Source: an uncultured Clostridia bacterium (GTDB lineage: Bacteria; Bacillota; Clostridia; Christensenellales; QALW01). From it: a DNA stretch of 64,000 nucleotides. This document shows positions 6,151 to 44,635 of the stretch, piece by piece; position 1 is the first letter of the stretch, and the number at the start of each line of letters is the position of its first letter. The stretch is taken from NCBI GenBank assembly GCA_934465535.1, contig CAKSKV010000001.1:167974-231973 (forward strand), read 5' to 3'. The notes under the pieces are model-generated. The model saw only the letters and a program-made list of their open reading frames with translations, did no database searches and was not told the DNA's origin. The translations under genes and the position numbers were made by a program.

Positions 6151-6996
6151 ATGCGTTTTATGATACCCGACAGGGAGATATGCGTTGAAAAAATCAGAAT
6201 TCCTTCAAAGGGGCGTAAAATGCCGGCGCTGGTGCTGTATCCAAAGCAAAGGCCCGAACCGGCAACGGGGGTGTTGTGGATCCACGGCGGAGGTTACATA
6301 ACCGGGATGAAGGAAATGGTGCATATGTCAAGAGCTGTCGACCTTGTTAAACGCTTCGGCGCGGCGGTGATATCGCCGGGGTACCGCTTGGCGCCGTTTT
6401 CGCCCTATCCGGCGGCTGCGGAGGATTGCTATGCGGCGCTGTTGTACCTTAAGGAGCATGCTGCGGAAATAGGCGTGCGCGAGAATCAGATAATGGTTGG
6501 CGGAGAAAGCGCGGGCGGCGGGCTGTGCGCTGCGGTATGCATAATGGCGCGGGACAGGGGAGAGGTAAATGTGGCGTTTCAGATGCCGCTGTACCCCATG
6601 CTGGATGACAGGGATACGGAAAGCTCAAGAGATAATCACGGCAAGGTGTGGAACACACGAAAAAACCATATGGCATGGCGCTGCTATCTGCGCGGACAGG
6701 ATAGGGAGAATTTATCCCCTTATGCAGCGCCGGCGCGCCTTGAGGATTTTTCCGGTCTGCCGCCTGCATACACCTTTGTGTGCGACGGCGAGCCGTTTTA
6801 TGCAGAGACGATGGGTTATGTACAAAAGCTCAGGGTCTGCGGCATTCCGGCGGAGGCGGATGTATATCATTCCGATATGCACGCCTTTGACATGCTGCGG
6901 CCCGGACTTGAGATAAGCCGTGAGGCGGTAAGGCGGTTTGGCGAACGGTTTGCTTATGCGCAGGCGCATTATTTTGCGCCGCAAAAGAAAAGGTAA
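6151..6996 (+). CDS. alpha/beta hydrolase (HSL-type esterase/lipase)
   Basis: HGGGY oxyanion motif and GESAGG nucleophile elbow. Confidence 0.7.
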   Translation: MRFMIPDREICVEKIRIPSKGRKMPALVLYPKQRPEPATGVLWIHGGGYITGMKEMVHMSRAVDLVKRFGAAVISPGYRLAPFSPYPAAAEDCYAALLYLKEHAAEIGVRENQIMVGGESAGGGLCAAVCIMARDRGEVNVAFQMPLYPMLDDRDTESSRDNHGKVWNTRKNHMAWRCYLRGQDRENLSPYAAPARLEDFSGLPPAYTFVCDGEPFYAETMGYVQKLRVCGIPAEADVYHSDMHAFDMLRPGLEISREAVRRFGERFAYAQAHYFAPQKKR

Positions 6997-7099
6997 ACGG
7001 GGATGCTTGCGCGGCAAGCGCAAAGAAGGGGCTTATAGCTTATCAAATATATAAAATCAAAAGCGGTCGGATAAAACGCAAATTAAGGAGACGGCGTAT

Positions 7100-7537
7100 A
7101 TGAACGATAATGAAATAGGACGGCAGATGTATGAAAGAGCGGCGGAATTTGTAAACCGAAGATTTCCTTCCGGATGGGGCGGCTGCGCGGTAGCCTATAC
7201 ACAGGAGGGACAGTATCTGATATCAGTAGCGTTGGAGTGCTTCAACAGCGGTGCGGGGTTATGCATGGAAACCGGCGCGATGTGCCAGGCGCAGAAGCTG
7301 GATCTGCGCATAACACATTCATTATGCATTTCAAGAGAAGACACGGGCGAAGAATTCAAAATACTGACTGCGTGCGGCATATGTCAGGAAAGGCTCAGGT
7401 ATTGGGGAGAAAATGTAAAAGTAGCAGTAACTAACCCGGAGAATAAAATTATATTCAAAACATTGGCGGAGCTGTCGCCATGTTATTGGGGAGAGGCGTT
7501 TCCGAAGGAGGAACGGGAGGAATATGATAATCGGTGA
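7100..7537 (+). CDS. cytidine/deoxycytidylate deaminase-like zinc-binding protein
   Basis: CME...ACGICQE motifs resembling CAE/PCxxC deaminase zinc ligands. Confidence 0.5.
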   Translation: MNDNEIGRQMYERAAEFVNRRFPSGWGGCAVAYTQEGQYLISVALECFNSGAGLCMETGAMCQAQKLDLRITHSLCISREDTGEEFKILTACGICQERLRYWGENVKVAVTNPENKIIFKTLAELSPCYWGEAFPKEEREEYDNR

Positions 7538-7625
7538 GGCGGCGTATTTGTAAAAGAAGCTGCGTTTTACAAGATAAAAAGCAATTCTCGGCTTTGTTAT
7601 AAGCCGACAGCATATAAGGAGAAAA

Positions 7626-8102
7626 ATGTTCAGAGAGATAAGAAACAGAAAAAAGGAAACGGATATTAAGACGGCGGAGGCGCTGCTGATAAACAGCCGC
7701 ATTGGTGTTTTGGCCGTAAACGGCGACAACGGCTACCCGTATGCGATACCGATCAATTATATCTATGATAAGGATGCCCGGAAAATATATTTTCACGGGG
7801 CAAAGGCAGGGCATAAGGCAGACGCTTTGCGTGCTTGTGATAAGGTGTGCTTTACCGTTTACGGAAAGGAAACCGTAAAAGAAGAGGCATGGGCACCGTT
7901 TGTGCAAAGCACGGTGGTGTTCGGCAGGTGTCGGTTTATAAAGGAAGGATCTGAGGCGGAGGCACTGCTTGGCCGTTTGGCAATGAAGTATTACCCGGAT
8001 GAGCAGACGGTACGGGAGGAAATTGCCCGCGCGGGCAAGGCGGTACAGATGTTTGAAATAGAGGTAGAGCATATCAGCGGCAAGGAGATACAGGAGCGCT
8101 GA
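7626..8102 (+). CDS. pyridoxamine 5'-phosphate oxidase-like FMN-binding protein (NimA-like)
   Basis: PNPOx split-barrel family sequence features. Confidence 0.7.
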   Translation: MFREIRNRKKETDIKTAEALLINSRIGVLAVNGDNGYPYAIPINYIYDKDARKIYFHGAKAGHKADALRACDKVCFTVYGKETVKEEAWAPFVQSTVVFGRCRFIKEGSEAEALLGRLAMKYYPDEQTVREEIARAGKAVQMFEIEVEHISGKEIQER

Positions 8103-8216
8103 GCCGCCGGCGGGCGGGGCTGCATTGTGCCGATGTGATGAAGCAAGGGCGGAGATTGCCGATGCGCCGGCAAAGGCACGCAGCTGCACGGAACAAAGGA
8201 AACGGAAGGCAGCGTT

Positions 8217-8963
8217 TTACCGCGCGAGATATTCGTCAAATTCCTCGCGGCTGCCGTTAAAGACATTCATATTCATATCGATAAAGCGTTCCCTGCCGTT
8301 ATAGCCCTTGAGGCGGGCGCGGTCGTTATATTGCCAAAAGCGCCAGCTTTCCTTTGGGCTTACCGGCAGGTATACGCTGCGGATCCAAAGGTCGCAATCG
8401 TCAAAATCAGAGCCGAGAATGCTGTTTTTTGCCGCCTGCGTGGTGTAGATGACGGGGGTTTTATTATAAATACGGCGCAGACCGTCCACAAAGCCGCGCA
8501 GCTCGCGCTTTACGGCGGCTGCATCAATGTCGCGGGCAGAGCGGAAGCTGCCGTAAAATTCAACATCCACAACGGGAGGAAGCATGCCGGAAAGGTCACC
8601 CGTTACGGCGTGAAAATGCTCAAGCTGCGTGGAGAACGGGGATTCAAAGCTGAAAAAATGGTATGCGCCCGCCGCGAGTCCCGCGTCTAAAGCGCCTTTA
8701 ATGTTTGCGGCATATTGAGGATCGGTGTACGATGAGCCCTCGGTGGCCTTTATAAAGGCAAAGGAAATGCCCTGAGAAGCAAGCAGCGGCCAGTCGGCCT
8801 GCCCTTGGTGGGCGGAAATATCCACGCCCTTTACGGGATATTTACTGCCCGGCTCGTTGAAACGGAGAATGCCCTGGAAAAAGAGCACAAGGATAAGCAG
8901 GATGACTGCAATGACGGTGCACGATGAAATAAGCAGCCAAAGCCGCGTTTTACGCTTTAACAT
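8217..8963 (-). CDS. GH25 family lysozyme (muramidase), membrane-anchored
   Basis: GVDISAHQG...FAFIKATEG GH25 motifs; N-terminal TM helix; strong RBS AAGGAGA before ATG at 8963. Confidence 0.8.
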   Translation of the reverse strand: MLKRKTRLWLLISSCTVIAVILLILVLFFQGILRFNEPGSKYPVKGVDISAHQGQADWPLLASQGISFAFIKATEGSSYTDPQYAANIKGALDAGLAAGAYHFFSFESPFSTQLEHFHAVTGDLSGMLPPVVDVEFYGSFRSARDIDAAAVKRELRGFVDGLRRIYNKTPVIYTTQAAKNSILGSDFDDCDLWIRSVYLPVSPKESWRFWQYNDRARLKGYNGRERFIDMNMNVFNGSREEFDEYLAR

Positions 8964-9238
8964 ACAGGTCTCCTTGGAATTGCGGCAAAAGCCGATTTGC
9001 ATAAGTATAGCATATAACGCTTATAAAAACAATACCGCGGCACAAAGACCGTAAAAAGCGAAAAAGGGCATTTGCCGATTTGCGCCGCCTGAGGTACAGC
9101 AAAGAGAGGAAAAGAGTTGAAAATTGCCCGGCATTGTGGTATTATATTAACCTGATAATGCTGCGCAAAATTGCATGTCGGCAAAGTTTTTTGCCGCCGG
9201 AGCAAAGAAAAGCGCATATAACGGAAAAGAGGCTTTTT

Positions 9239-9991
9239 ATGAAGGACAATATACCCGCCGGGAGCGAGGATGTTAAAGAGCGGGAAAAACTGAAGGAGAC
9301 GGCTTGCACGGCAGGGGAGGCTGCATCGGATGCACGGGCCTGCACGGAGGAAAACGCCTTAGTAAACGAAAACGAAACGGAACTGTACGGCGACGAAACG
9401 AAGCCTTCGGAAGGCAATGCGGCATCAGGGGGCAGCGGCACTTTTTCCGAGGAGATAACGGGAATTGATACCTCCTTTGAGCAGAGCGTACGCAAGCCGG
9501 ATTACACGCAGGACAAAAAGCGGTATCGGCTTTACAACATAATGATGTATGTAAGCATTGCGGCGGCGGGCATGGGAGTTGTTTTCCTGCTGCTGGGCGC
9601 ATATGTTTTCGGAGCGGCGGATATTGTGTTCTGGGCGGGGCTTACGGTGCTGTTTTATCATCTTAAGGACGGCGCCGTGATTGAATACGATTATGAATTT
9701 TCCGACGGCGCACTGCGTATTGCGCGCATAAGCAACGGTGAAAAGCGCAAGGAGCTGCTTTGCGCGGAGTGCGGAAAAATTGAGAGCATTGCGCCGCTTA
9801 ATACGGAAGATATCAAACGCATGGCAGAGACGGGAGAACGCAAAATAAAGGATTATTCCCTTAATGAAGACAGCAGGAAATACTGTGTGCTGTGCAGCGT
9901 TAAAAATGAAAAGCTGGCTGTGATATGGGAACCGAAGCAGTCGCTTCTGCGCCTTATACGCCGCGAGATGCCAAGGTCGGTGACGCTATGA
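9239..9991 (+). CDS. hypothetical membrane protein (acidic N-terminus, 2 TM, Cys-containing C-terminal domain)
   Basis: ORF with TM hairpin; start at MKDN; no recognised family. Confidence 0.5.
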   Translation: MKDNIPAGSEDVKEREKLKETACTAGEAASDARACTEENALVNENETELYGDETKPSEGNAASGGSGTFSEEITGIDTSFEQSVRKPDYTQDKKRYRLYNIMMYVSIAAAGMGVVFLLLGAYVFGAADIVFWAGLTVLFYHLKDGAVIEYDYEFSDGALRIARISNGEKRKELLCAECGKIESIAPLNTEDIKRMAETGERKIKDYSLNEDSRKYCVLCSVKNEKLAVIWEPKQSLLRLIRREMPRSVTL

Positions 9992-28692: not shown

Positions 28693-30698
28693 TATTTGCG
28701 CTTGCGGGAAATCAGAATTGCGGCAAAACCACGCTTTTCAACGCACTTACCGGATCTAATCAGCATGTGGGGAACTTCCCCGGCGTTACCGTGGATCAGA
28801 AAAGCGGTACGATAAAGGGCGTAAAGGATTGCTCAGTTGTGGATCTGCCCGGTATATATTCTTTGCGCCCGTATACCCAGGAGGAGATTGTCACAAGGGA
28901 TTTTGTAATTGACGGAAAGCCCGACGGCATTATTAACATAGTTGACGCCACAAATATAGAGCGCAATATGTATCTTACTTTGCAGCTGCTGGAACTGCGT
29001 GTACCTATGGTGCTTGCACTTAACATGATGGATGAGGTACGCGCAAACGGCGGCACGGTGGATGTGCAGAAAATGAGTCAGGCGCTTGGGATTCCGGTGG
29101 TTCCGATAAGCGCAGCCAAGGGCGAGGGTATAAGCGAGCTTATTGATAAAGCCGTGCAGACTGCCAAAAGCCGAACGCTTCCTGCGGTGTCCGATTTCTG
29201 CGACGATGCTTCGCCGGTTCACAGATGTATTCATGCAGTAATTCATTTGATTCAGGATCATGCCGATAATGTCGGGATTCCGGCGCGCTTCTGTGCGGTT
29301 AAGCTCATAGAGGGCGATAAGGAAATGGAAAAGCGTTTGGAGCTTGATAAAAACGAAACCGAACTGCTGGAGCACTGCGTGGTGGAAATGGAGGACGCTA
29401 CGGGCTTTGACCGCAATGAGGCGCTGGCGGATATGCGTTATACCTTTATAGAAAAGGTAACACAGAGTGCGGTAGTTAAATGCCATGAGAGCAGGGAGCA
29501 CAGCCGCAGCGTTAAGATCGACCGTGTGCTTACCGGCAAATACACTGCATTGCCCGTGTTTTTTGCAGTGATGCTGTTAGTATTCTGGCTTACATTTGAT
29601 GTTATCGGACAACGGTTGTCTGATTTGCTTTCCCTCGGCATAGATGCTTTATCCGCAGCCGCAGACAAGGGGCTTACGGCATACGGCATAAATCCTGTGG
29701 TGCACAGCCTGATAATTGACGGCATTTTTACCGGAGTAGGCAGCGTGCTGAGCTTTTTGCCCATAATAGTTACTCTGTTTTTCTTTCTGTCCATTCTTGA
29801 AGACACGGGGTATATGGCACGCATTGCCTTTGTTATGGATAAGCTGCTGCGGCATATCGGCTTATCCGGGCGCAGCTTTGTGCCGATGCTTATAGGCTTT
29901 GGCTGTACCGTTCCCGCTATTATGGCTACAAGAACGGTATCCAGCGACCGCGACCGTAAAATGACCATTCTGCTTACCCCCTATATGAGCTGTTCGGCAA
30001 AGATACCGATTTATGCCGTTTTCAGTGCGGCCTTTTTCCCCAAGCACGCAGCGCTTGTTATGATAGGGCTGTATGTTACCGGCATTATATTGGGGATCAT
30101 TGTGGCGCTTATACTTAAAAACACCGCCTTTCGCGGCAATCCGGTGCCTTTTGTTATGGAATTGCCGAATTACCGCCTTCCTTCGTTTAAAAGCGTTATG
30201 CTGCTGCTTTGGGAAAAGGCAAGGGATTTTCTTGAGCGTGCCTTTACTGTGATTTTTGTTGCCTCCATAGTAATATGGTTTTTGCGCACATTTGATACAA
30301 AACTCAATGTCGTGGAGGATTCCTCGCAAAGCCTGCTTGCGCTTGTGGGGCGCTTTATTGCTCCGGCCTTTGCGCCGCTCGGCTTTGGCGATTGGCGTGC
30401 CGTTACTTCGCTCATTTCCGGCTTTACGGCCAAGGAAGCGGTTGTAAGCACTATGGCGGTGCTGATGGGCACAAGCGTAAATGAGCTGGGCGGAGCGCTT
30501 TCCGCACTGTTTACGCCGCTTTCGGCGCTGAGCTTTTTGGTGTTTACATTGCTTTATACGCCCTGTGTTGCGGCAATTGCCACCGTGCGGCGCGAGCTTC
30601 ATTCGCGCGGCGCAACCTTGGGAGTGGTGCTTATGCAGTGCGGGGTTGCATATCTTGCGGCGCTTGCCGTTTGGCAGATAGGAAGTCTTTTTGTATGA
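28689..30698 (+). CDS. feoB: ferrous iron transport protein B
   Basis: N-terminal G-domain (GNQNCGKTTLFN) and polytopic permease. Confidence 0.9.
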   Translation: MIFALAGNQNCGKTTLFNALTGSNQHVGNFPGVTVDQKSGTIKGVKDCSVVDLPGIYSLRPYTQEEIVTRDFVIDGKPDGIINIVDATNIERNMYLTLQLLELRVPMVLALNMMDEVRANGGTVDVQKMSQALGIPVVPISAAKGEGISELIDKAVQTAKSRTLPAVSDFCDDASPVHRCIHAVIHLIQDHADNVGIPARFCAVKLIEGDKEMEKRLELDKNETELLEHCVVEMEDATGFDRNEALADMRYTFIEKVTQSAVVKCHESREHSRSVKIDRVLTGKYTALPVFFAVMLLVFWLTFDVIGQRLSDLLSLGIDALSAAADKGLTAYGINPVVHSLIIDGIFTGVGSVLSFLPIIVTLFFFLSILEDTGYMARIAFVMDKLLRHIGLSGRSFVPMLIGFGCTVPAIMATRTVSSDRDRKMTILLTPYMSCSAKIPIYAVFSAAFFPKHAALVMIGLYVTGIILGIIVALILKNTAFRGNPVPFVMELPNYRLPSFKSVMLLLWEKARDFLERAFTVIFVASIVIWFLRTFDTKLNVVEDSSQSLLALVGRFIAPAFAPLGFGDWRAVTSLISGFTAKEAVVSTMAVLMGTSVNELGGALSALFTPLSALSFLVFTLLYTPCVAAIATVRRELHSRGATLGVVLMQCGVAYLAALAVWQIGSLFV

Positions 30699-34731: not shown

Positions 34732-34782
34732 GAAAATCAACAGCCATAAAAGCGCGCAGCGCTCGCTTATGCTATATAAAGC

Positions 34783-34818
34783 AAGTACAGACGGCATTGC
34801 CGTCTGTACTTTTTTAAT
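34783..34818 (+). terminator. rho-independent terminator after TPM-domain gene
   Basis: AGTACAGACGGC/GCCGTCTGTACT stem plus TTTTTT. Confidence 0.65.
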
Positions 34819-34991
34819 ATCAACATCTAGACGCATAAACTAAACAAAATCGCGGCTTTGCCGTGCGCTTGCTTCGGATATCAAAGAAGTCGATTCAGTG
34901 CGGGAAAATAAGCAAAAGCCGGTGCTTTACGCACTTTTTATCGGGTGAGTGAAAATACATTAAAAGAATTTAATAAAAATCAAAAAAACGC

Positions 34992-37522: not shown

Positions 37523-38170
37523 TTATGCTGCTTTGCTTTTGTATGATTTATAAAACATCCTGTCATTAAATATCTTTTTGATTGGCTTTGGTAAACGCGG
37601 GCATTCCTCAATAGCTAATTCCAGCACTTTCCTTGGACTGATGCGCTTGCGGTTAGCTAATGCAACCGCGTCAATTGCAGATACTTCTGTTTTGCAAGCG
37701 TCAATAAGGCGTTCCATAAACCGCGGAAAACTGTCAATATACTCTTTTTTAATGCCGTAGTTGATATCTATGTAATTGTAATTTGAAAAATTTAAGTATT
37801 TTTTCGAACCGGATGTCGAATTATTCTGCAAAACAATTATTTCCGGCTCGCCGGAATATCTCCAGTTTGAAAGCCGTCCCCGCAATTCATCACAGGCTTC
37901 CGTAAAACACTTGTCGCTGTATTGCCATTTTTGATTATCTGTTCCGGGAATCTCCGTCACATCGGAATAATTACGGCCAAAATTCGGAGAATATCCAAGC
38001 CAATAAATTGAACAGTATTTTTTTGAACGATAGTGAAGATAATTGATTTTTTTGATATATTCTTCAGCACTCGAGTCGGAGGGCTTCACCAATAACAAAA
38101 CGATTACATGATTTCCTTCAAGTAATTTTTCTTGTTTTTCAATACCCGCTATGTTATTTATCGGATACAT
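37523..38170 (-). CDS. hypothetical protein, low-GC, last gene of the TIR operon
   Basis: ORF with RBS GGAGAA before ATG 38170; AT-rich codon usage unlike neighbours; no family recognised. Confidence 0.45.
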   Translation of the reverse strand: MYPINNIAGIEKQEKLLEGNHVIVLLLVKPSDSSAEEYIKKINYLHYRSKKYCSIYWLGYSPNFGRNYSDVTEIPGTDNQKWQYSDKCFTEACDELRGRLSNWRYSGEPEIIVLQNNSTSGSKKYLNFSNYNYIDINYGIKKEYIDSFPRFMERLIDACKTEVSAIDAVALANRKRISPRKVLELAIEECPRLPKPIKKIFNDRMFYKSYKSKAA

Positions 38171-38269
38171 CTGATTCTCCTTTTTTCCACACAAATTTAC
38201 TTAATACTTTTTGCAATTTATAGGTATGTCCAGATGACAAATAAGGGCAATAGCCTAAAAGTATTTGCT

Positions 38270-41074
38270 TTATTCATTTTTCATAGAGTCAAGATCAATC
38301 CATAAGGCGGGACGAACACCGCAACCGTCACTGGTGACAAATCCGTTACTTTTGTAACAGAGGCCACCGGAAGAGGACATGACAAAAGCAGCGTAGTAAG
38401 GGCCGGTGAGCGACCGCAGCCACCACGCATCAGCACCACTACCTGCTGCGTGTGCTTTTGCGTAAGCTGTAAAGGCGCATTTTCGTGCATGGTTATCACT
38501 GAAGTATTTTTCCACTTCGTTGTAACTGAGCAGGAATACTTTATCCGTTGTTGCATTGCCGGGATCTGTGTAGTAGTTCAGAATTTTATCGACAGATACG
38601 GTGCTGCTTTGAATCAGCGCCCTTTCTTCTTCGCTGAATGCCTCATTAAGAAAAGAGTCATTCAGCCATTTGCGAAGAGAGCATTGCTCCCATGTGATGG
38701 CTTTTCTTGTTTCGTAGTATGGCTTTTCGTTGTAGGGCTGGAAGTCAAGAACTTTATTGCTTATGACAAGTATTTTATTGCTTTCCTTTGCTAAAACAAG
38801 CCATTCAATATCTTCTGCGCCGTTAGAAGTGACATTATCCTGTTCATAGGTTCCGAAAGTAAATTTATCTCCAATAGCTAAAAGCTGTTTGCATTTTGTT
38901 TTTATGTATTCACATTTTTCTTTGCTGTCTTTATAGGAAATATCTTTCAGAAGTATATAGGCGGATTCATAATCGCCCGAATCTATACATTTAATGGCTC
39001 TGTCATATTTGCTTGCGAAGATGGTGTCGATGTCGTTGATTTCTCTAAGCAGGGTGTACGCAGAATCGAAATTGCCGGAATCGAGCAGCTTCATAGCTCT
39101 GCTCCGTTTGCTGGAAGCTATGGTTTCGCTGTCGCCGATTTCTTCAAGCAGGGTGTACGCAGAATCGAAATTGCCGGAATCGAGCAGCTTCATAGCTCTG
39201 CTCCGCTTGCTGGAGGCTATGGTTTCATTGTCATCGATTTCTTTAAGCAGGGCGTATGCGGAATCGTAGTCTTCCGATTCAAGCAGCTTCATTGCGCGGT
39301 TATACTTGCTAACTTTGATATCATCATCTTTGTTTATTTCTTCAAGCAAGGAATAGGCGGAATCGTAATCTCCCGATTCCAGCAAATTCATCGCTTTGTT
39401 ATACTTCAGCTGCGGAATAATGACCATGTTCAGCACGATTACAAAGGCTATGCAGACACATAAAACGGGAGTGGCAATGGCAGCAAACTTTTTGAGCCGT
39501 TTTGCCCTTTTTGCGGCGGCAATTCGCTTTTCTTCTATCCGTTTTTGGCAGGCGTATATTTGGCTGTCGGCATCCCGCCAGCCGGGAATGGTCTTAAATA
39601 TCGCTATTGCTTCCTCGTATGAAGCGGTGTTCCCGACGGCCCTCCTTGATATTGCAGTGGTGTACAATGCGTCCTTGCGGCAGCTTTCCGCTTTTTCAAG
39701 GCATTGCGCGGCAAGTGCGTCGGCATCGCGGAAGCCGGAAATGCTTTTGAACAGCTCGGCTCCTTTAAGAAAGGCATTTTGCGCCGCAGCGGACTTCATA
39801 ATGCCGCATGCATTGTTATAAATTGCGCTCTTACGGCGCGTTTCGTTGCGCTCGTTTATAATGTCTATATATCCGCGCAGCTCCGTATTCAGCGCTTCAT
39901 CGCCAAAGCGGAGAATTTTTAAGTAGTTTTCGTTTTTGTCAAACGGCTGCGCGCAGTCGCTCAGCTGCCCGCGCTTTGGAACCTGCAGCTCCGCCATCAG
40001 CTTGCCCAGATACGCCTGTGCATTTTTCGGGTCTATATCCAGCACCTTTTCGCAGTAGGTGTCGGCGTCGGACCATTTGCCGTCCTCAAGGAAAAGAAAC
40101 GTCCGTTCCAGAAGGGGCGCAGCGCCCGTGCTGCCCGCGGCTGCCGGCGCGGCAGGCTTTGCGGCGTTTTTTTGCCCGTCGGAGGATACTATCTTTTTTA
40201 TACCCCGTATAAGGTCCTGCATAAAGCCTAACTTGCCCATATCCTGCGCCTGAAGGTGGGAGAATTCCTCGGGCAGATCGTAGGGGTCCATGTCCTTATA
40301 GGCGGGAATAAGCATTTTTTTGGCGCCGTTTTTAATAAGCGCAAGGTAACGGCTCCACTCGTTTTTTACCCATACGGCGTTGAAATATTCCGGCCTTGTG
40401 CCCAAAACCACCATGACCTTTGCGCTGTTAAGGGCGGCGAATATGTACGGCTCGTAGGCGGAGCCCAGCTTGTCCTCCAGAGTAATACGGCTGAAGAACA
40501 CCTTGAAGCCCTCCTGCGTCAGCTGGTGGTAAAGGTCGTTTGCCAGCACGCTGTCGGGCGTTCTTGCACCGCGGCTGTCGGTTTCCTTATAGCAGATAAA
40601 TACATCAAAGGGCTCCTCCTTCTGTGAAATTGCAAGAATGCCCTTTTGAATTTCATTTATTGCCTTGGCCTCGGCTTCGTAAATTTCCTTTTGGGCGGCG
40701 TCGGCGCAGCGCAGAGCGGATTTGTAGTTATCATCGTCAAAGACGGAGGTAAACTGCGCCCTGTTCACCGTGGGAATGCGCTTGCCGGTGGCCGGGTCCT
40801 CCACATATTCAATACCGTAGCGGCAAAGCACAAGGGACCAATAAGCCTCGGCGTCGGTGCTGTCCTCGGCCAGAATCTGTTCGTATATGCTCATTGCCTT
40901 GTCGTATTCGTTATTGCGGCGGAAATGATTTGCCCGGTCATACAGGTTTGCCTTTTTATCGTCGTCAAGGCGGGGAAGGGTCTGCTTGGTGCCGCAGCTG
41001 TCGCACACGGCAACTGTGTCGCCGGGATTAAATTCCAGTGTCCCGCCGCACATTTTACATTTGAAGATTGCCAT
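38270..41074 (-). CDS. type II membrane protein: N-terminal Zn-ribbon + TIR domain + TPR-like region, single TM, 5 tandem 33-aa repeats, C-terminal DUF6273-like extracellular domain
   Basis: TIR motifs DVFICYKE, VMVVLGT, WVKNEW (putative catalytic Glu); TM AIATPVLCVCIAFVIVLNMVII preceded by KRAKRLKK; ATG 41074 overlaps upstream stop (TAATG) with RBS AGGAG. Confidence 0.8.
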   Translation of the reverse strand: MAIFKCKMCGGTLEFNPGDTVAVCDSCGTKQTLPRLDDDKKANLYDRANHFRRNNEYDKAMSIYEQILAEDSTDAEAYWSLVLCRYGIEYVEDPATGKRIPTVNRAQFTSVFDDDNYKSALRCADAAQKEIYEAEAKAINEIQKGILAISQKEEPFDVFICYKETDSRGARTPDSVLANDLYHQLTQEGFKVFFSRITLEDKLGSAYEPYIFAALNSAKVMVVLGTRPEYFNAVWVKNEWSRYLALIKNGAKKMLIPAYKDMDPYDLPEEFSHLQAQDMGKLGFMQDLIRGIKKIVSSDGQKNAAKPAAPAAAGSTGAAPLLERTFLFLEDGKWSDADTYCEKVLDIDPKNAQAYLGKLMAELQVPKRGQLSDCAQPFDKNENYLKILRFGDEALNTELRGYIDIINERNETRRKSAIYNNACGIMKSAAAQNAFLKGAELFKSISGFRDADALAAQCLEKAESCRKDALYTTAISRRAVGNTASYEEAIAIFKTIPGWRDADSQIYACQKRIEEKRIAAAKRAKRLKKFAAIATPVLCVCIAFVIVLNMVIIPQLKYNKAMNLLESGDYDSAYSLLEEINKDDDIKVSKYNRAMKLLESEDYDSAYALLKEIDDNETIASSKRSRAMKLLDSGNFDSAYTLLEEIGDSETIASSKRSRAMKLLDSGNFDSAYTLLREINDIDTIFASKYDRAIKCIDSGDYESAYILLKDISYKDSKEKCEYIKTKCKQLLAIGDKFTFGTYEQDNVTSNGAEDIEWLVLAKESNKILVISNKVLDFQPYNEKPYYETRKAITWEQCSLRKWLNDSFLNEAFSEEERALIQSSTVSVDKILNYYTDPGNATTDKVFLLSYNEVEKYFSDNHARKCAFTAYAKAHAAGSGADAWWLRSLTGPYYAAFVMSSSGGLCYKSNGFVTSDGCGVRPALWIDLDSMKNE
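38845..39335. repeat. five tandem 99-bp repeats inside the TIR-protein gene (encode 33-aa repeats SGxFDSAYxLLxEIxD...)
   Basis: period-99 recurrence of AAGCAGGGTGTACGCAGAATCGAAATTGCCGGAATCGAGCAGCTTCATAGCTCTGCTCCG at 39047, 39146, 39245; two units ~95% identical. Confidence 0.7.
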
Positions 41075-41523
41075 TATACTGACTCCTTTTTGATAATATT
41101 TATCCAAGATAGCAAAGTATCTTCATAGAGAATGATTCTTGCTTTTTCGTAGCCTTTATAGTTGGAAAAATAATAAATTCGCGTCTTTTTGTAACATCTT
41201 ACATTAAAACTGCCGTGCGCTAACGCGTTTCTAATAGCGGAAAATAGGGAGGAAACCACTCCGTTTTCATCATTTGCTAAAAATACGCAATACTCGTCCG
41301 GATATGTAATTGCTTCGCATTTTCTGAAATTTGAAGGTAACTCGCTTTTTTTGCTTGGCATATAGTTGCCCTTCAAGCTTGGGGTTGCGGCCTGTAAAAG
41401 ATTGTTCTTTAGTTTGGTAAAAGAAGGAGATCTGCTGTATCCAAGCTGTTTGAAAGTTTTTCCTCTGTGGCTCTTTCCTTCAACAGGACATTCAAATAAA
41501 TAAAACTGAATGATTTTTTGCAA
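41074..41523 (-). CDS. small HEPN-like protein (Rx4H motif IRNALAHG)
   Basis: Rx4H motif typical of HEPN RNases; AT-rich; start uncertain (TTG 41523 or ATG 41361). Confidence 0.4.
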   Translation of the reverse strand: MQKIIQFYLFECPVEGKSHRGKTFKQLGYSRSPSFTKLKNNLLQAATPSLKGNYMPSKKSELPSNFRKCEAITYPDEYCVFLANDENGVVSSLFSAIRNALAHGSFNVRCYKKTRIYYFSNYKGYEKARIILYEDTLLSWINIIKKESV

Positions 41524-41579
41524 GTTTTTATTTGATATGCTTGAAGGTTCTGTGAAATTTGTGCAATACTTAGCGTTTT

Positions 41580-42278
41580 TTACTTCATCGCCTTACACTT
41601 TCCGTTTCGCTCTGCCAGAGTATCCAGCAGGCTTTGCGCCGCCTCTGTCGCGCCCTGACCGGCGTTTACGGCATTTTCAAACGCCTTGAATTCCTTTTCA
41701 AGCTCCGCCTCAATCGCGCTTAATGCCTCGCTGCTTACGGGGTCGGAATATCGCAGCGCCTCATATACCTTTTTTGCCGCCGCTTTTTCGTCCGGGTTTT
41801 TGGCTTTGGCAAGCAGCGTTTCGGCGTTTACTGTTAAAAGCTTTATAAGCTGTGTCTGCGCTTTTACCTTTTCTTCAACGGCATCGGCAGCCTTTCCCGC
41901 CCAATCGGCACGGACAACGGCCGCTGCGGTAACGGCTGCGGCAATCAGGCACACAACGGCGGCAATCCATGCGGGGCAGCCCGGAATAAGCATAAGCGCT
42001 CCGCCCAGCACCAGCATAACAATCAACCCCGCGTAGCTGACGGTTATAAGCGGCAGATTGTAAAACAGCTTTTTAAGGTTCTGTGCCTTAAAGGCAAAAT
42101 ATGCGCAGACGAGATTTCCGATAAAAGCCGCGAGAATAAATCCCCACGCAATCCAGAAACGCGCATCGTAATTGACCACATATCCCGGAATTATGGGACA
42201 AACAAGAAACACGACAGCATTAAACACTACAAGCATGATTGCCCATATCAGCGCATACGATTTGAAATTCCTTTTCAT
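41580..42278 (-). CDS. membrane protein: 4 TM helices plus C-terminal coiled coil
   Basis: hydrophobic N-terminal half, Ala/Glu/Lys-rich helical C-terminal half. Confidence 0.55.
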   Translation of the reverse strand: MKRNFKSYALIWAIMLVVFNAVVFLVCPIIPGYVVNYDARFWIAWGFILAAFIGNLVCAYFAFKAQNLKKLFYNLPLITVSYAGLIVMLVLGGALMLIPGCPAWIAAVVCLIAAAVTAAAVVRADWAGKAADAVEEKVKAQTQLIKLLTVNAETLLAKAKNPDEKAAAKKVYEALRYSDPVSSEALSAIEAELEKEFKAFENAVNAGQGATEAAQSLLDTLAERNGKCKAMK

Positions 42279-42293: not shown

Positions 42294-43436
42294 TTATAAA
42301 ATGCTTTTAAGCAGCTCTGCCTTCATGGCGGCGAATTCCTCATCGGTAATCAGCCCGGCGTTTTTCATCACCGTCAGCTTTTCCGCTTTTGCTTTGAATG
42401 TCGCCATATCATCGGCGGGTTGTGCTGCCTGCTGCGGCTGAGCCGGCTGCGCCGCTGCGCTTACGGCGTTATTTACTGCGCCGCCCACCATGCCGCTTAC
42501 TGCGCCGCCGACACCCGCCATTGTGCCAAAGCCTATTCCCATATTGGTAAACTGACCAACCGCCTCGTTCTGCGCCGCCGTCTGCGCCACATCAAAGCTG
42601 CGCTCCTGCGCGTATGTATAGCCCTCCTGCGCCCGCTTTGTGGCCTGCGCCTGAGAATCTATCACTATTTTCTGCGCCTCTGTCTGGGCGTTTATGATAT
42701 CGGTCTGCTGCTTAAGCTTGGCTTCGGCAATATCCGCATACTGGCGGAAATGCAGCTCCTTGAATTTTTCATACTGCTTCTCGCCGTCCGGCTTTACTAT
42801 GGTGGTTACAAAAAATCTTTCCAGCGCAATGCCGTAATCGGCAAAGTCCGGAATAAGAAGCTTATGCAGATTCTCGGAAAAGGCCGTCAGGTTTTCGTCA
42901 ATTTCAAAAATATTTATGGAATTTGCCCGTATGACCTGAGCGATATATGTTTTTACCCTTGTCATAAGAAAAGCACGGAAAAAACCGGTCAGCTGCTGCT
43001 GCCCCAAAAAGCTTTCCGTTCCCACAAGCTTTATAAGCAGCCTGCGGCTGTCCTGCACGCGCAGGCTCATTTCGCCCGATGCGCCTATCGAAATGGGGAA
43101 GCGGTATGTTGGGTCGATATACTGTATTTTGGAATCGGTTCCCCATTTGATAGCCATCTGCTCGGTTTTGTTTATAAAATAAACCTCGCAGTGGAATGGG
43201 GTCTTATCGCCGACGGTGCGGTTGAGCAGCTTTCCGATTTTTGGTATGTTCTGTGTTTCCAGCGTATACCTGCCCGGCCCGAACAGGTCAAGCGCCTGCC
43301 CGTTCATGAAAAATACGGCTTCCTGCGATTCATGCACGATAAGCTGTGTAAGAGTGTTGAAATCTTCGCATGGGTGCTTCCAGATGAAGGTGGAATTATC
43401 CCCCTCGTATTTGATTACATCTGCAATTTGTGCCAT
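42294..43436 (-). CDS. SPFH/band-7 (YdjI-like) protein with C-terminal SHOCT domain
   Basis: band_7_1-like core; C-terminal GLITDEEFAAMKAELL SHOCT motif; RBS GGGAGG before ATG 43436 (ORF-track extension to 43553 runs into the inverted repeat). Confidence 0.7.
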   Translation of the reverse strand: MAQIADVIKYEGDNSTFIWKHPCEDFNTLTQLIVHESQEAVFFMNGQALDLFGPGRYTLETQNIPKIGKLLNRTVGDKTPFHCEVYFINKTEQMAIKWGTDSKIQYIDPTYRFPISIGASGEMSLRVQDSRRLLIKLVGTESFLGQQQLTGFFRAFLMTRVKTYIAQVIRANSINIFEIDENLTAFSENLHKLLIPDFADYGIALERFFVTTIVKPDGEKQYEKFKELHFRQYADIAEAKLKQQTDIINAQTEAQKIVIDSQAQATKRAQEGYTYAQERSFDVAQTAAQNEAVGQFTNMGIGFGTMAGVGGAVSGMVGGAVNNAVSAAAQPAQPQQAAQPADDMATFKAKAEKLTVMKNAGLITDEEFAAMKAELLKSIL

Positions 43437-43452
43437 TAAAATACCTCCCTGT

Positions 43453-43483
43453 AACATAATCTGCATTATGTTGTAGTGCAAGT
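43453..43483. repeat. left arm of perfect 31-bp inverted repeat (AACATAATCTGCATTATGTTGTAGTGCAAGT)
   Basis: exact reverse complement of 43737..43767. Confidence 0.9.
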
Positions 43484-43670
43484 AAAAAAAGATCGCAGTG
43501 CCCGTAAAAAAATTTGTCACAAAAACCGTGCAAAATAAAAAAAGGCGCAGCAAAGCAGGCCTTTTCGAAAAAAGTTGAAAAAATAACGCGAAAAGGCTTT
43601 TTCGGCATGCCTGATTTTTGACGGCGGGGGCAGAAGCGACTGTTTTTTTTGGTCAAATATTTACAAACTA

Positions 43671-43699
43671 TTTACAAAGTGCCCCCATTATGCTATAAT
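43671..43699 (+). promoter_or_regulatory. near-consensus sigma-A promoter inside invertible segment (TTTACA-17 bp-TGcTATAAT), currently firing away from the SPFH/TIR operon
   Basis: -35 TTTACA 43671..43676, 17-bp spacer, extended -10 TGcTATAAT 43691..43699. Confidence 0.6.
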
Positions 43700-43736
43700 T
43701 AAGCATATAATGATGTTGTTTGTCATACTCGTGGGA

Positions 43737-43767
43737 ACTTGCACTACAACATAATGCAGATTATGTT
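43737..43767. repeat. right arm of perfect 31-bp inverted repeat
   Basis: exact reverse complement of 43453..43483. Confidence 0.9.
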
Positions 43768-43792
43768 GCTTCTGCTGCGCGGTATGGCTTTT

Positions 43793-44635
43793 TTATATTA
43801 TCAGATGCAGGTTCTCCATGCGGCGGCGGTGTTCTGCACCGGAGGATATAATATATATACGCGTGGTGTTTATGCTGCTGTGACCCAGAATATCGGCAAG
43901 CTTTGCAAGGTCTTTTTCGATCTCATAAAACAGCCGGGCAAACAAATGCCGCAGATTATGGGGAAACACCTTTTTCGGGCTGACATTTGCCCGCGTACAC
44001 AGCGCTTTCATCTCCCGCCAGATATTTGTTCGGTTAAGCGGCTTTCCCAAACGCGTTATAAATATCATACCCTCCTTTATTCCTTTTTTTGCAGCATACT
44101 TAAGCAGCTTTTGCCGCAGCTCCTTCACAAGGAAAACCGAGCGCGTTTTTCCCTTGCAGCTAACAAGCGCTTCGCCGCGTTTTGCCGCATCCACCGTTAT
44201 ATGCTGCAGCTCGCTTACCCGTATGCCCGTGCTGCACAGCGTTTGCAATACAAGGCAGAGCCGTTTGTTGCCGGAATGCCGCGCCGCTTCGCACAGCCGC
44301 GTGTATTCGGCCTTTGTAAGTTCCTTTTCCTCGGAACAGAACGCTTGCTGCTGAAGTGATACCGATTTTACCTTCAGGTCATGCCAGCCCATAAGGGAAA
44401 ACAGAACATTCAGGCTTGTGAGCATTGAATTAACACTGCGCACGGAATAGTTATCCCGCAGCCGCTTTTTGTACGCAATAACAGTTTCCTTGGTAACGGG
44501 GCCGCTTTGGGCATAGCGCGAAAACGCCGTTGCATCGCGGATATATTTTTCCACCGTTGCGCCGCTTCGCTCCTCAAAGATAAGATGCTTTTTGAATCCG
44601 GCAATGGCATTTGCCGTTATAAACCGCTCTTTCAT
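43793..44635 (-). CDS. tyrosine site-specific recombinase (phage integrase/XerD-like fold)
   Basis: HxxR (HNLRH) and C-terminal LGHSSINTTRIY catalytic Tyr motif. Confidence 0.85.
   Translation of the reverse strand: MKERFITANAIAGFKKHLIFEERSGATVEKYIRDATAFSRYAQSGPVTKETVIAYKKRLRDNYSVRSVNSMLTSLNVLFSLMGWHDLKVKSVSLQQQAFCSEEKELTKAEYTRLCEAARHSGNKRLCLVLQTLCSTGIRVSELQHITVDAAKRGEALVSCKGKTRSVFLVKELRQKLLKYAAKKGIKEGMIFITRLGKPLNRTNIWREMKALCTRANVSPKKVFPHNLRHLFARLFYEIEKDLAKLADILGHSSINTTRIYIISSGAEHRRRMENLHLII

Follow-up and report, generated by a model that had tools for sequence, protein, structure and literature searches.

In Firmicutes and Mollicutes, short intergenic segments in front of surface or signalling operons are inverted by tyrosine recombinases, as by RecV of C. 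difficile (cwpV, flgB, cmrRST) and at the mpl loci of Mycoplasma penetrans, where the promoter inversions are carried out by Xer-like recombinases. RecV acts at several distant sites, and the cwpV switch is an orientation-dependent terminator. The fimS switch of the E. coli FimB/FimE system, which governs phase variation of type 1 fimbriae, has a 314-bp segment with 9-bp repeats and a resting bias that is strongly OFF. The locus described here lies in a 64-kb stretch (64,000 nucleotides, nt; called the window) of contig CAKSKV010000001.1 from an uncultured Clostridia bacterium, between the gene of an Xer-like tyrosine recombinase of 280 amino acids (aa) and an operon that begins with an SPFH gene and includes a TIR gene. 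With a probability of roughly 0.87 it is a site-specific promoter inversion switch (inverton) served by the adjacent recombinase.

Invertons with adjacent recombinases have already been published from gut Clostridia, and the window switch joins this known class. A 2025 survey of a defined gut community (Microbiome; PMC11892184) describes inverton group 139 with invertase group 35, in which 32 of 33 invertons come from Firmicutes_A, in 17 strains including the Oscillospiraceae member Intestinimonas. These invertons are intergenic, have repeats of 14–26 nt and segments of about 206–228 bp, and are tightly linked to an adjacent tyrosine recombinase group that lies beyond the reach of the switch promoter's own regulation; their orientation ratios shifted over passages (PMC11892184). 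Geometry, taxon and recombinase class of that group, as given there, all fit the window switch, which very likely belongs to the same or a sister family, the comparison being one of these three properties. In contrast to the window switch, the dif-like core, the matched variable centres, the SPFH/TIR cargo and the spread on mobile elements are not mentioned in the accessible part of the survey (PMC11892184).

The likeness to fimS lies in a short invertible segment, here 253 bp plus arms, with the promoter of the downstream operon, and by analogy the layout would work like fimS with FimE. Differently from fimS, there is one recombinase and not two, it falls outside the FimB/FimE family, the arms have 26–31 nt with a dif-like 7-6-7 core instead of 9-bp repeats, and the cargo is not fimbrial. 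In its design the cwpV switch resembles the promoter-plus-terminator arrangement proposed below. Unlike the RecV sites, every switch of the present type is paired with a separate recombinase next to it and differs in the sequence of its centre. XerC/XerD-dif and the XerA, XerH and XerS systems are related through the recombinase, whose best profile and structure matches are Xer proteins, and through the arm with its 6-bp centre. They differ in having one dif (11-6-11) at the replication terminus, whereas here two inverted sites surround a promoter at many loci and on mobile elements, and the outcome is inversion, not dimer resolution.

The elements of the switch and the recombinase gene are as follows (positions in the window; strand in brackets where there is one).

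43453..43483: cargo-proximal arm, 31 nt, perfect inverted repeat; its dif-like core site at 43453–43472 is AACATAAT-CTGC-ATTATGTT
43484..43736: invertible segment, 253 bp, which the sister-strain contig L012 carries inverted between its two flanks
43559..43597 (minus): conserved internal palindrome/hairpin GCCTTTTCG-N21-CGAAAAGGC, present in 9/9 diverse switches
43671..43699 (plus): predicted sigma-70-type promoter TTTACA-17-TGcTATAAT, 11/12 consensus plus TG, hexamers kept in paralogous cassettes
43737..43767: recombinase-proximal arm, perfect inverted repeat; core site at 43748–43767, with centre GCAG, the reverse complement of CTGC
43768..43794 (plus): spacer from arm to recombinase stop, with a weak hairpin plus T6 (43789–43794), in the place of the canonical terminator of paralogous cassettes
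43793..44635 (minus): Xer-like tyrosine recombinase, 280 aa, Pfam Phage_integrase, presumed invertase, beside a switch of the same design in homologous loci
43444..43449 (minus): ribosome-binding site GGGAGG of the first cargo gene, read directly from the sequence

The two arms are 100% complementary and stand 253 nt apart. Among 100 dinucleotide-preserving shuffles of the window, a repeat of this kind was not found once, with three mismatches allowed, and the 64-kb window holds no second inverted-repeat pair or switch of the same type. The right centre is the reverse complement of the left one, and thus the two core sites are in inverted orientation. The segment between the arms has 37.5% GC and no coding capacity. 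Its promoter, with a 17-nt spacer between TTTACA and TATAAT, points at the recombinase and away from the cargo. A loose promoter scan gave no overall enrichment (3 found, 2.8 expected), and the weight of the promoter call derives from the two hexamers, which are strictly kept at a fixed position across paralogous switch types with diverged surroundings. From the left arm to the SPFH ATG (43436) there are only 16 nt, ribosome-binding site included, which leaves no room for a fixed promoter in front of this gene. If the segment is flipped in silico, the promoter occupies 43549–43521 on the minus strand and the end of its -10 element lands 84 nt upstream of the ATG. An earlier reading of the window, made from its letters (the sequence-only reading), had claimed perfect 31-bp inverted repeats around 253 bp and a near-consensus extended -10 promoter on the plus strand at 43671..43699, both of which are borne out. 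The fold predicted for RNA of the whole region (z -6.5) merely mirrors the pairing of the arms.

The recombinase carries a Pfam Phage_integrase catalytic domain (PF00589, 91.5 bits, cut-off 27.1, E 6.7e-26) and a complete catalytic set, R139, K163, H226, R229, H252 and Y261, by alignment to XerD (1a0p); the same reading had also named a 280-aa tyrosine recombinase with catalytic motifs 26 bp past the right repeat, correctly. Its stop codon lies about 25–26 nt beyond the right arm. The N-terminal SAM-like domain PF02899 scores 20.3 bits (cut-off 22.3) in the window protein and is recorded as a match in most homologs at about 75% identity. Top profile matches are XerA (2.2e-36) and XerD (5.2e-31), followed by XerC, and the matching structures are PDB 4a8e and 1a0p. 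All Xer equivalog cut-offs are missed (XerA 125.8 of 220, XerD 108 of 329.6, XerC 98.2 of 335 and XerS 53.2 of 267 bits), as are those of the invertases FimB (NF007371) and FimE (NF007370), with 30.5 and 26.0 bits for cut-offs of 222 and 221. By these profile scores the protein is a relative of Xer and neither a housekeeping Xer nor an invertase of FimB/FimE type. Its cluster has 296 members at 93% identity, and thousands of 280-aa homologs are found at about 75% identity. In all homologous loci examined the recombinase stands beside a switch of this design, and it presumably catalyses the inversion.

Homologous loci were gathered for several recombinase homologs, and an arm pattern that left the centre free was run over viral and mobile-element contigs. 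These cassettes all keep the half-sites AACATAA(T) and (A)TTATGTT, giving the core form AACATAA-TNNNNA-TTATGTT. The central 4 nt vary between cassettes (CTGC, CAAC, CCAC, CGGC, CAGT, CTAT, CAGC), and in all 6 spacer types in which both arms are present the two arms of a switch share one centre, inverted. Core sites of tyrosine recombinases are classically built in this way, with conserved inverted binding elements around a free, matched and asymmetric overlap, and the matched variable centres are the signature expected of its overlap region. The sites being inverted, inversion is the predicted outcome. The window 28-mer CTGTAACATAA-TCTGCA-TTATGTTGTAG is identical at 16 of 28 positions to E. 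coli dif, GGTGCGCATAA-TGTATA-TTATGTTAAAT, and the inner core CATAA-T....A-TTATG is identical in both. The symmetry of the half-sites would suit a single homomeric recombinase, as XerA, XerH or XerS. The dif site is the target of XerCD and has the canonical 6-bp centre (PMC3025954). Used as a query, the dif 28-mer was present in all but two of the complete E. coli genomes (5,424 of 5,426), and the median genome has it at one place. The same query matched 731 plasmid places, and about 625 records matched at only 80–90% identity; the low-identity matches are presumably cer/psi-type Xer sites, record type and identity not having been cross-tabulated.

Both orientations of the switch exist in natural DNA. 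Exact-protein look-ups gave five contigs of the window's own strain, all in the window orientation. Seven sister-strain loci came from a scan for the arm in metagenome and genome collections, one of them in an Oscillospiraceae metagenome-assembled genome (CP091722.1); their inner segments are about 90% identical to that of the window. Six of these seven are oriented as in the window, and L012 (OOIG01004530.1) is inverted relative to both flanks. Flipped in silico between its arms, L012 agrees with L011 at 427 of 427 positions; unflipped, it has 278 matching positions in a gapped alignment of 454 columns. Elsewhere the two contigs are 2–3% different, and they thus represent different strains from different samples. 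In this strain type the arms are identical over the outer 26 nt only, the inner 5 positions differing between the arms; across all sister strains the outer 26 nt are invariant and positions 27–31 polymorphic. The inner 5-nt polymorphisms of L012 have swapped sides along with the segment. Since these arm ends travelled with it, the strands must have been exchanged within the outer 26 nt, which are invariant. The claim of an inversion switch in the sequence-only reading is supported from public assemblies by an allele that is L011 inverted base for base, and the claimed placement of the flipped promoter upstream of the SPFH gene agrees with L012, in which the -10 element lies 84 nt upstream of the SPFH ATG, as in the in-silico flip.

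A second natural ON case is L027 (sample ERZ28613787), from another study and another cassette type than L012. It has the same recombinase protein and flanks as L029, which is OFF, and its promoter faces an FHA-ABC operon. In L067, of a third cassette type, 895 nt of the cargo flank are repeated at the start of the contig (1–2014) as a perfect inverted copy that is linked to the original through the switch; the cargo flank is therefore present on both sides of the switch, and flipped and unflipped junctions stand in one contig. Either both orientations were present in the sample and left this trace, or the contig is a chimera of assembly. When the flipped junction was derived from the window and looked for as an exact match, the metagenome scan gave none, which is uninformative as the sister-strain L012 differs at the probe. 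Contigs ending at the switch (L002, L003, L006) and a gap of Ns in L005 were considered as signs of mixed orientation and rejected, as Logan works with k=31, just the length of an arm, and coverage of the other contigs is low.

The switch recurs as a module in front of unrelated cargo. A common layout is found in nine switch types, namely recombinase, spacer, arm, segment of about 224–261 bp, arm, and cargo on the recombinase strand. The spacer from recombinase to arm has 24–26 nt, and 6 nt in one type; the arm core is AACATAAT-NNNN-ATTATGTT, and a TTTACA-type promoter lies about 45 nt from the recombinase-proximal arm. Both promoter hexamers are kept at the fixed position in five of the nine types. 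Three types (L060/L068, L071, L072) have a weaker promoter, read by eye only, and the sequence of one (L062) ends after the first arm. The cargo comprises giant LRR_5/Big_3/cohesin-dockerin surface proteins, an operon of FHA-ABC, PP2C, FHA and Ser-Thr kinase genes, an FRG-domain protein followed by LRR proteins, and an open reading frame (ORF) with a weak MmeI-methyltransferase match; these are mutually unrelated, and that of the window is the SPFH/TIR operon.

Some cassettes deserve separate mention. The ORF just named has 236 aa and a motif EPACGNGNFL (L060 3900–4290, L068 505–1215; MmeI-methyltransferase match at E 2.7e-4); it follows a switch with centre CGGC and the 6-nt stop-to-arm spacer, and it may be a fragment of a phase-variable DNA methyltransferase. 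In L017, L022, L023 and L024 (about 6843–9600) the recombinase and the switch are the same as in L018–L021, and the predicted start of the giant LRR/cohesin/dockerin gene lies more than 2 kb later (901 or 781 aa, compared with 1635–1756 aa); its 5' part may be disrupted or rearranged in these samples. Cassettes often stand at the edges of mobile elements (L027–L036, L038–L040, L048–L051, L056, L071). Their neighbours there are Tn916-like Int/Xis with FtsK and Rep, a relaxase with a NikA-like protein and a large serine recombinase, or prophage holin and amidase. The neighbours of the window switch are the core genes minD, minE-like, rodA and dxs, which are syntenic in sister strains.

Two hairpins may insulate the switch. 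Inside the segment, a palindrome AGCCTTTTC-N19-23-GAAAAGGCT is conserved in nine of nine diverse switches, and it is followed by a T-rich run (about 43533–43546) on the recombinase-sense (minus) strand, in the common orientation. RNAalifold predicts an 8-bp stem for it, with the 8 pairs kept in 9/9 switches. This internal hairpin may terminate transcription in one direction only and so keep transcripts of the recombinase gene from reading through, or it may be bound by a protein. The second element lies in the spacer between arm and stop codon, where most cassette types carry, on the strand leaving the switch, a GC-rich hairpin of 6–7 bp plus T5–7, which is the form of a canonical intrinsic terminator. 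Since the window spacer carries T6 and a weak hairpin, with a canonical terminator in most paralogs, antisense read-through into the recombinase is probably limited, and the OFF-state promoter would mainly make a short RNA of about 90 nt. Of the claim that the promoter fires rightward and antisense into the 3' end of the recombinase gene, the geometry stands, and the reach of transcription is likely curtailed by the spacer T6 and hairpin. Orientational control in the manner of fimE, in which the OFF promoter would silence the recombinase by antisense RNA, was also considered and is weakened by the outward-facing spacer terminator of most cassettes; a reduced form of it would be pairing in the 3' untranslated region. 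A motif AAAAAGCC recurs just past the recombinase stop (43777–43792) and inside the palindrome (43592–43599), and at equivalent positions in all cassettes.

The proposed mechanism is that the 280-aa recombinase binds the dif-like core site in each arm, formed by AACATAA and TTATGTT around the 6-bp overlap TCTGCA. The asymmetric overlaps being inverted, strand exchange would flip the 253-bp segment and not excise it. The segment would carry a strong sigma-70-type promoter, which in the window orientation would face the recombinase and leave the operon of SPFH, membrane protein, small ORF, TIR-receptor-like and uncharacterized genes without a promoter of its own (OFF), and which in the inverted orientation would drive this operon from 84 nt upstream of the SPFH start codon (ON). 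In the OFF state, the internal hairpin with its T-run would probably stop read-through from the recombinase gene, and the hairpin and T-run between arm and stop would curb transcription from the switch into that gene. The switch would rest overwhelmingly in the OFF orientation. The promoter is presumably active, both terminators presumably act as such, and switching within a population may be frequent enough for phase variation.

Several observations weigh against this explanation. About 55 assemblies are OFF (promoter at the recombinase), 2 are ON (promoter at the cargo) and 1 contig is mixed, in a collection that left out places with similar neighbours and is not an unbiased sample. The OFF bias is extreme, and inversion may be rare or the ON state strongly counter-selected; the bias might arise because expressing the cargo is costly, because the recombinase is controlled directionally, or simply because switching is rare. 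Mixed orientation within one population is hinted at only by the possibly chimeric L067, and the inner segment of L027 is about 70% identical to that of flipped L029, which is not a clean flip of one sequence. A covariation test found no compensatory changes in the internal hairpin among the 9 switches, because of which a terminator and a protein-binding site are indistinguishable for this palindrome. The hairpin in the window's own spacer is weak or degenerate, the T6 run remaining.

With 55 of about 58 assemblies sharing one orientation, and with L011 and L012 coming from different samples and strains, the repeat could be the relic of one or a few past inversions, for example by homologous recombination between the arms, at a locus that is now fixed and whose promoter makes a short RNA toward the recombinase; promoter, arm and spacer terminator would indeed yield a transcript of about 90–110 nt in most cassette types. 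Little credence is given to this, as arms of 26–31 nt are too short for efficient RecA-dependent inversion, and as the outer 26 nt are invariant while the segment diverges by about 10% among sister strains and far more between cassettes. The arm centres match within a switch and differ between switches, and a recombinase with intact catalytic residues always adjoins. The flipped state has been found independently in two cassette types, with a both-junction contig in a third. A strong one-way bias is common in genuine invertons, according to the gut-community survey (PMC11892184).

Assemblers can be confused by repeats, and Logan contigs (k=31) break exactly at the 31-nt arm, as in L002; together with the N-gap inside the segment of L005, the palindromic contig end of L067 and an RNA fold dominated by arm pairing, this could mean that the flipped contigs are artefacts of assembly and that the element consists of non-inverting dif-like Xer sites, or is a long RNA hairpin or attenuator. 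Such an account is very improbable. The arms of L011 and L012 are identical over just 26 nt, which is below the usual final k-mers and read lengths, and the junctions of L012 would then need spanning reads; its arm-end polymorphisms swapped sides as a crossover in the core predicts, and a random mis-join would not give 427 of 427 agreements after a clean flip. L027 is independent of it in study and cassette, and an RNA hairpin leaves the adjacent recombinase and the matched variable centres unexplained. That recombinase and repeats are the integration and excision machinery of a small IMEX-like mobile element, with no regulatory switch, is hardly credible, in spite of the dif-like arms and of homologous cassettes that are often found on elements with a relaxase, serine recombinases, Tn916-like or prophage lysis genes. 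Here the repeats do not enclose the recombinase gene, nothing is encoded in the 253-bp segment, and inverted sites give inversion, not excision. A conserved promoter at a fixed position faces one arm, in all cases the module precedes a co-oriented operon by a fixed distance, and the core-gene neighbours in the window are those of the sister strains.

Beyond the inversion switch itself, a broader and tentative proposal, held at somewhat short of even odds, is that the switch in the window is one of many copies of a phase-switch cassette that is portable, self-contained and descended from Xer/dif. The cassette would consist of a single Xer-like recombinase and a segment of about 250 bp, with a promoter one way, a terminator the other way and inverted dif-like sites at its ends. 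Its variable centre of 4–6 bp would serve as an address, allowing many switches per genome without cross-talk, and the cassette would have spread through gut Clostridia and mobile elements in front of arbitrary operons. Here it would control a membrane SPFH/TIR-receptor-like module, maybe an undescribed immune or envelope-sensing system, that is silent in most cells. To the known class of invertons are added the flipped natural allele, the dif-like arms that appear to be address-coded, the proposed promoter-plus-terminator design and the portability of the cassette. An inverton predicted from sequence only could be validated from public assemblies alone, through the same locus flipped base for base. 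The arm pattern beside a 280-aa recombinase, as given above, provides a search rule for switches in Clostridia, and the cassettes are a possible source of orthogonal invertase/site pairs for engineering.

The cargo of the window consists of five co-oriented, tightly spaced genes from the SPFH ATG at 43436 down to 37523, in which no excess of internal promoter-like or terminator-like sites was found.

42294..43436 (minus): cargo gene 1, SPFH/Band_7_1 protein with a SHOCT tail, 380 aa; Band_7_1 9.2e-39
41580..42278 (minus): cargo gene 2, membrane protein, 232 aa; weak DUF4231 match, E 0.006, below cut-off
41074..41523 (minus): variable slot with a small ORF, 149 aa from TTG or 95 aa from ATG, RNALAHG motif; HEPN-like at best
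38270..41107 (minus): TIR protein, 934–945 aa, with zinc ribbon, TPR, TIR_2, one transmembrane helix, repeats and DUF6273; TIR_2 2e-11
37523..38194 (minus): last cargo gene, 223 aa, 37.2% GC, no family match

The cargo had been claimed to be an SPFH/HEPN/TIR operon, of which the SPFH and TIR parts hold and the HEPN part is doubtful. The small ORF has an Rx4H motif (RNALAH) and a sub-threshold PF18736 score of 15.2 bits (cut-off 26.6, E 0.018), and it gave no NCBIfam or PADLOC matches. Its GC content is 35.8%, compared with 50.7% for the window, and the slot 41074–41579 varies between strains, an ORF of about 100 aa with no relation to that of the window being found in L007, and a mere spacer of about 70 nt in L010/L011. 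The small ORF is an accessory insert and no core component of the operon.

The TIR protein begins with a zinc ribbon and TPR, followed by the TIR domain and a single transmembrane helix after RAKRLKK; six repeats, each about 34 aa long, then lead to DUF6273 (3e-28) at the C-terminus. The positive-inside rule would make it receptor-like, with an intracellular TIR domain. GC falls to 37–42% in the 3' third of its gene and in 37523–38194, which suggests that the low-GC gene end and the next gene are a swapped-in module. PADLOC gave no match for the SPFH, membrane, small or 223-aa proteins and repeat-region matches only (0 stretches) for the TIR protein, and Thoeris ThcB4 scores 29.6 bits (cut-off 220); in the PADLOC and NCBIfam scans no known defence-system model fits the operon. 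A literature search found no published description of an SPFH/TIR operon under inverton control. The switch would turn a TIR and SPFH membrane operon of an uncultured gut bacterium ON and OFF stochastically, OFF being the resting state of the population. Such a pattern is to be expected where a function is costly or exposed at the surface, as phage defence and phage-receptor proteins are. A role of the cargo in defence is hypothesised; most of the other cassettes have surface proteins as their cargo, and a role at the surface or in the envelope would, by analogy, fit the classical use of invertons.

Elsewhere in the window, an imperfect inverted repeat (31 nt, 74%, 313 nt apart) is found at 29664–30038, and a terminator-like 23-nt hairpin with a 1-nt loop lies at 34774–34820, upstream of ABC-transporter genes.

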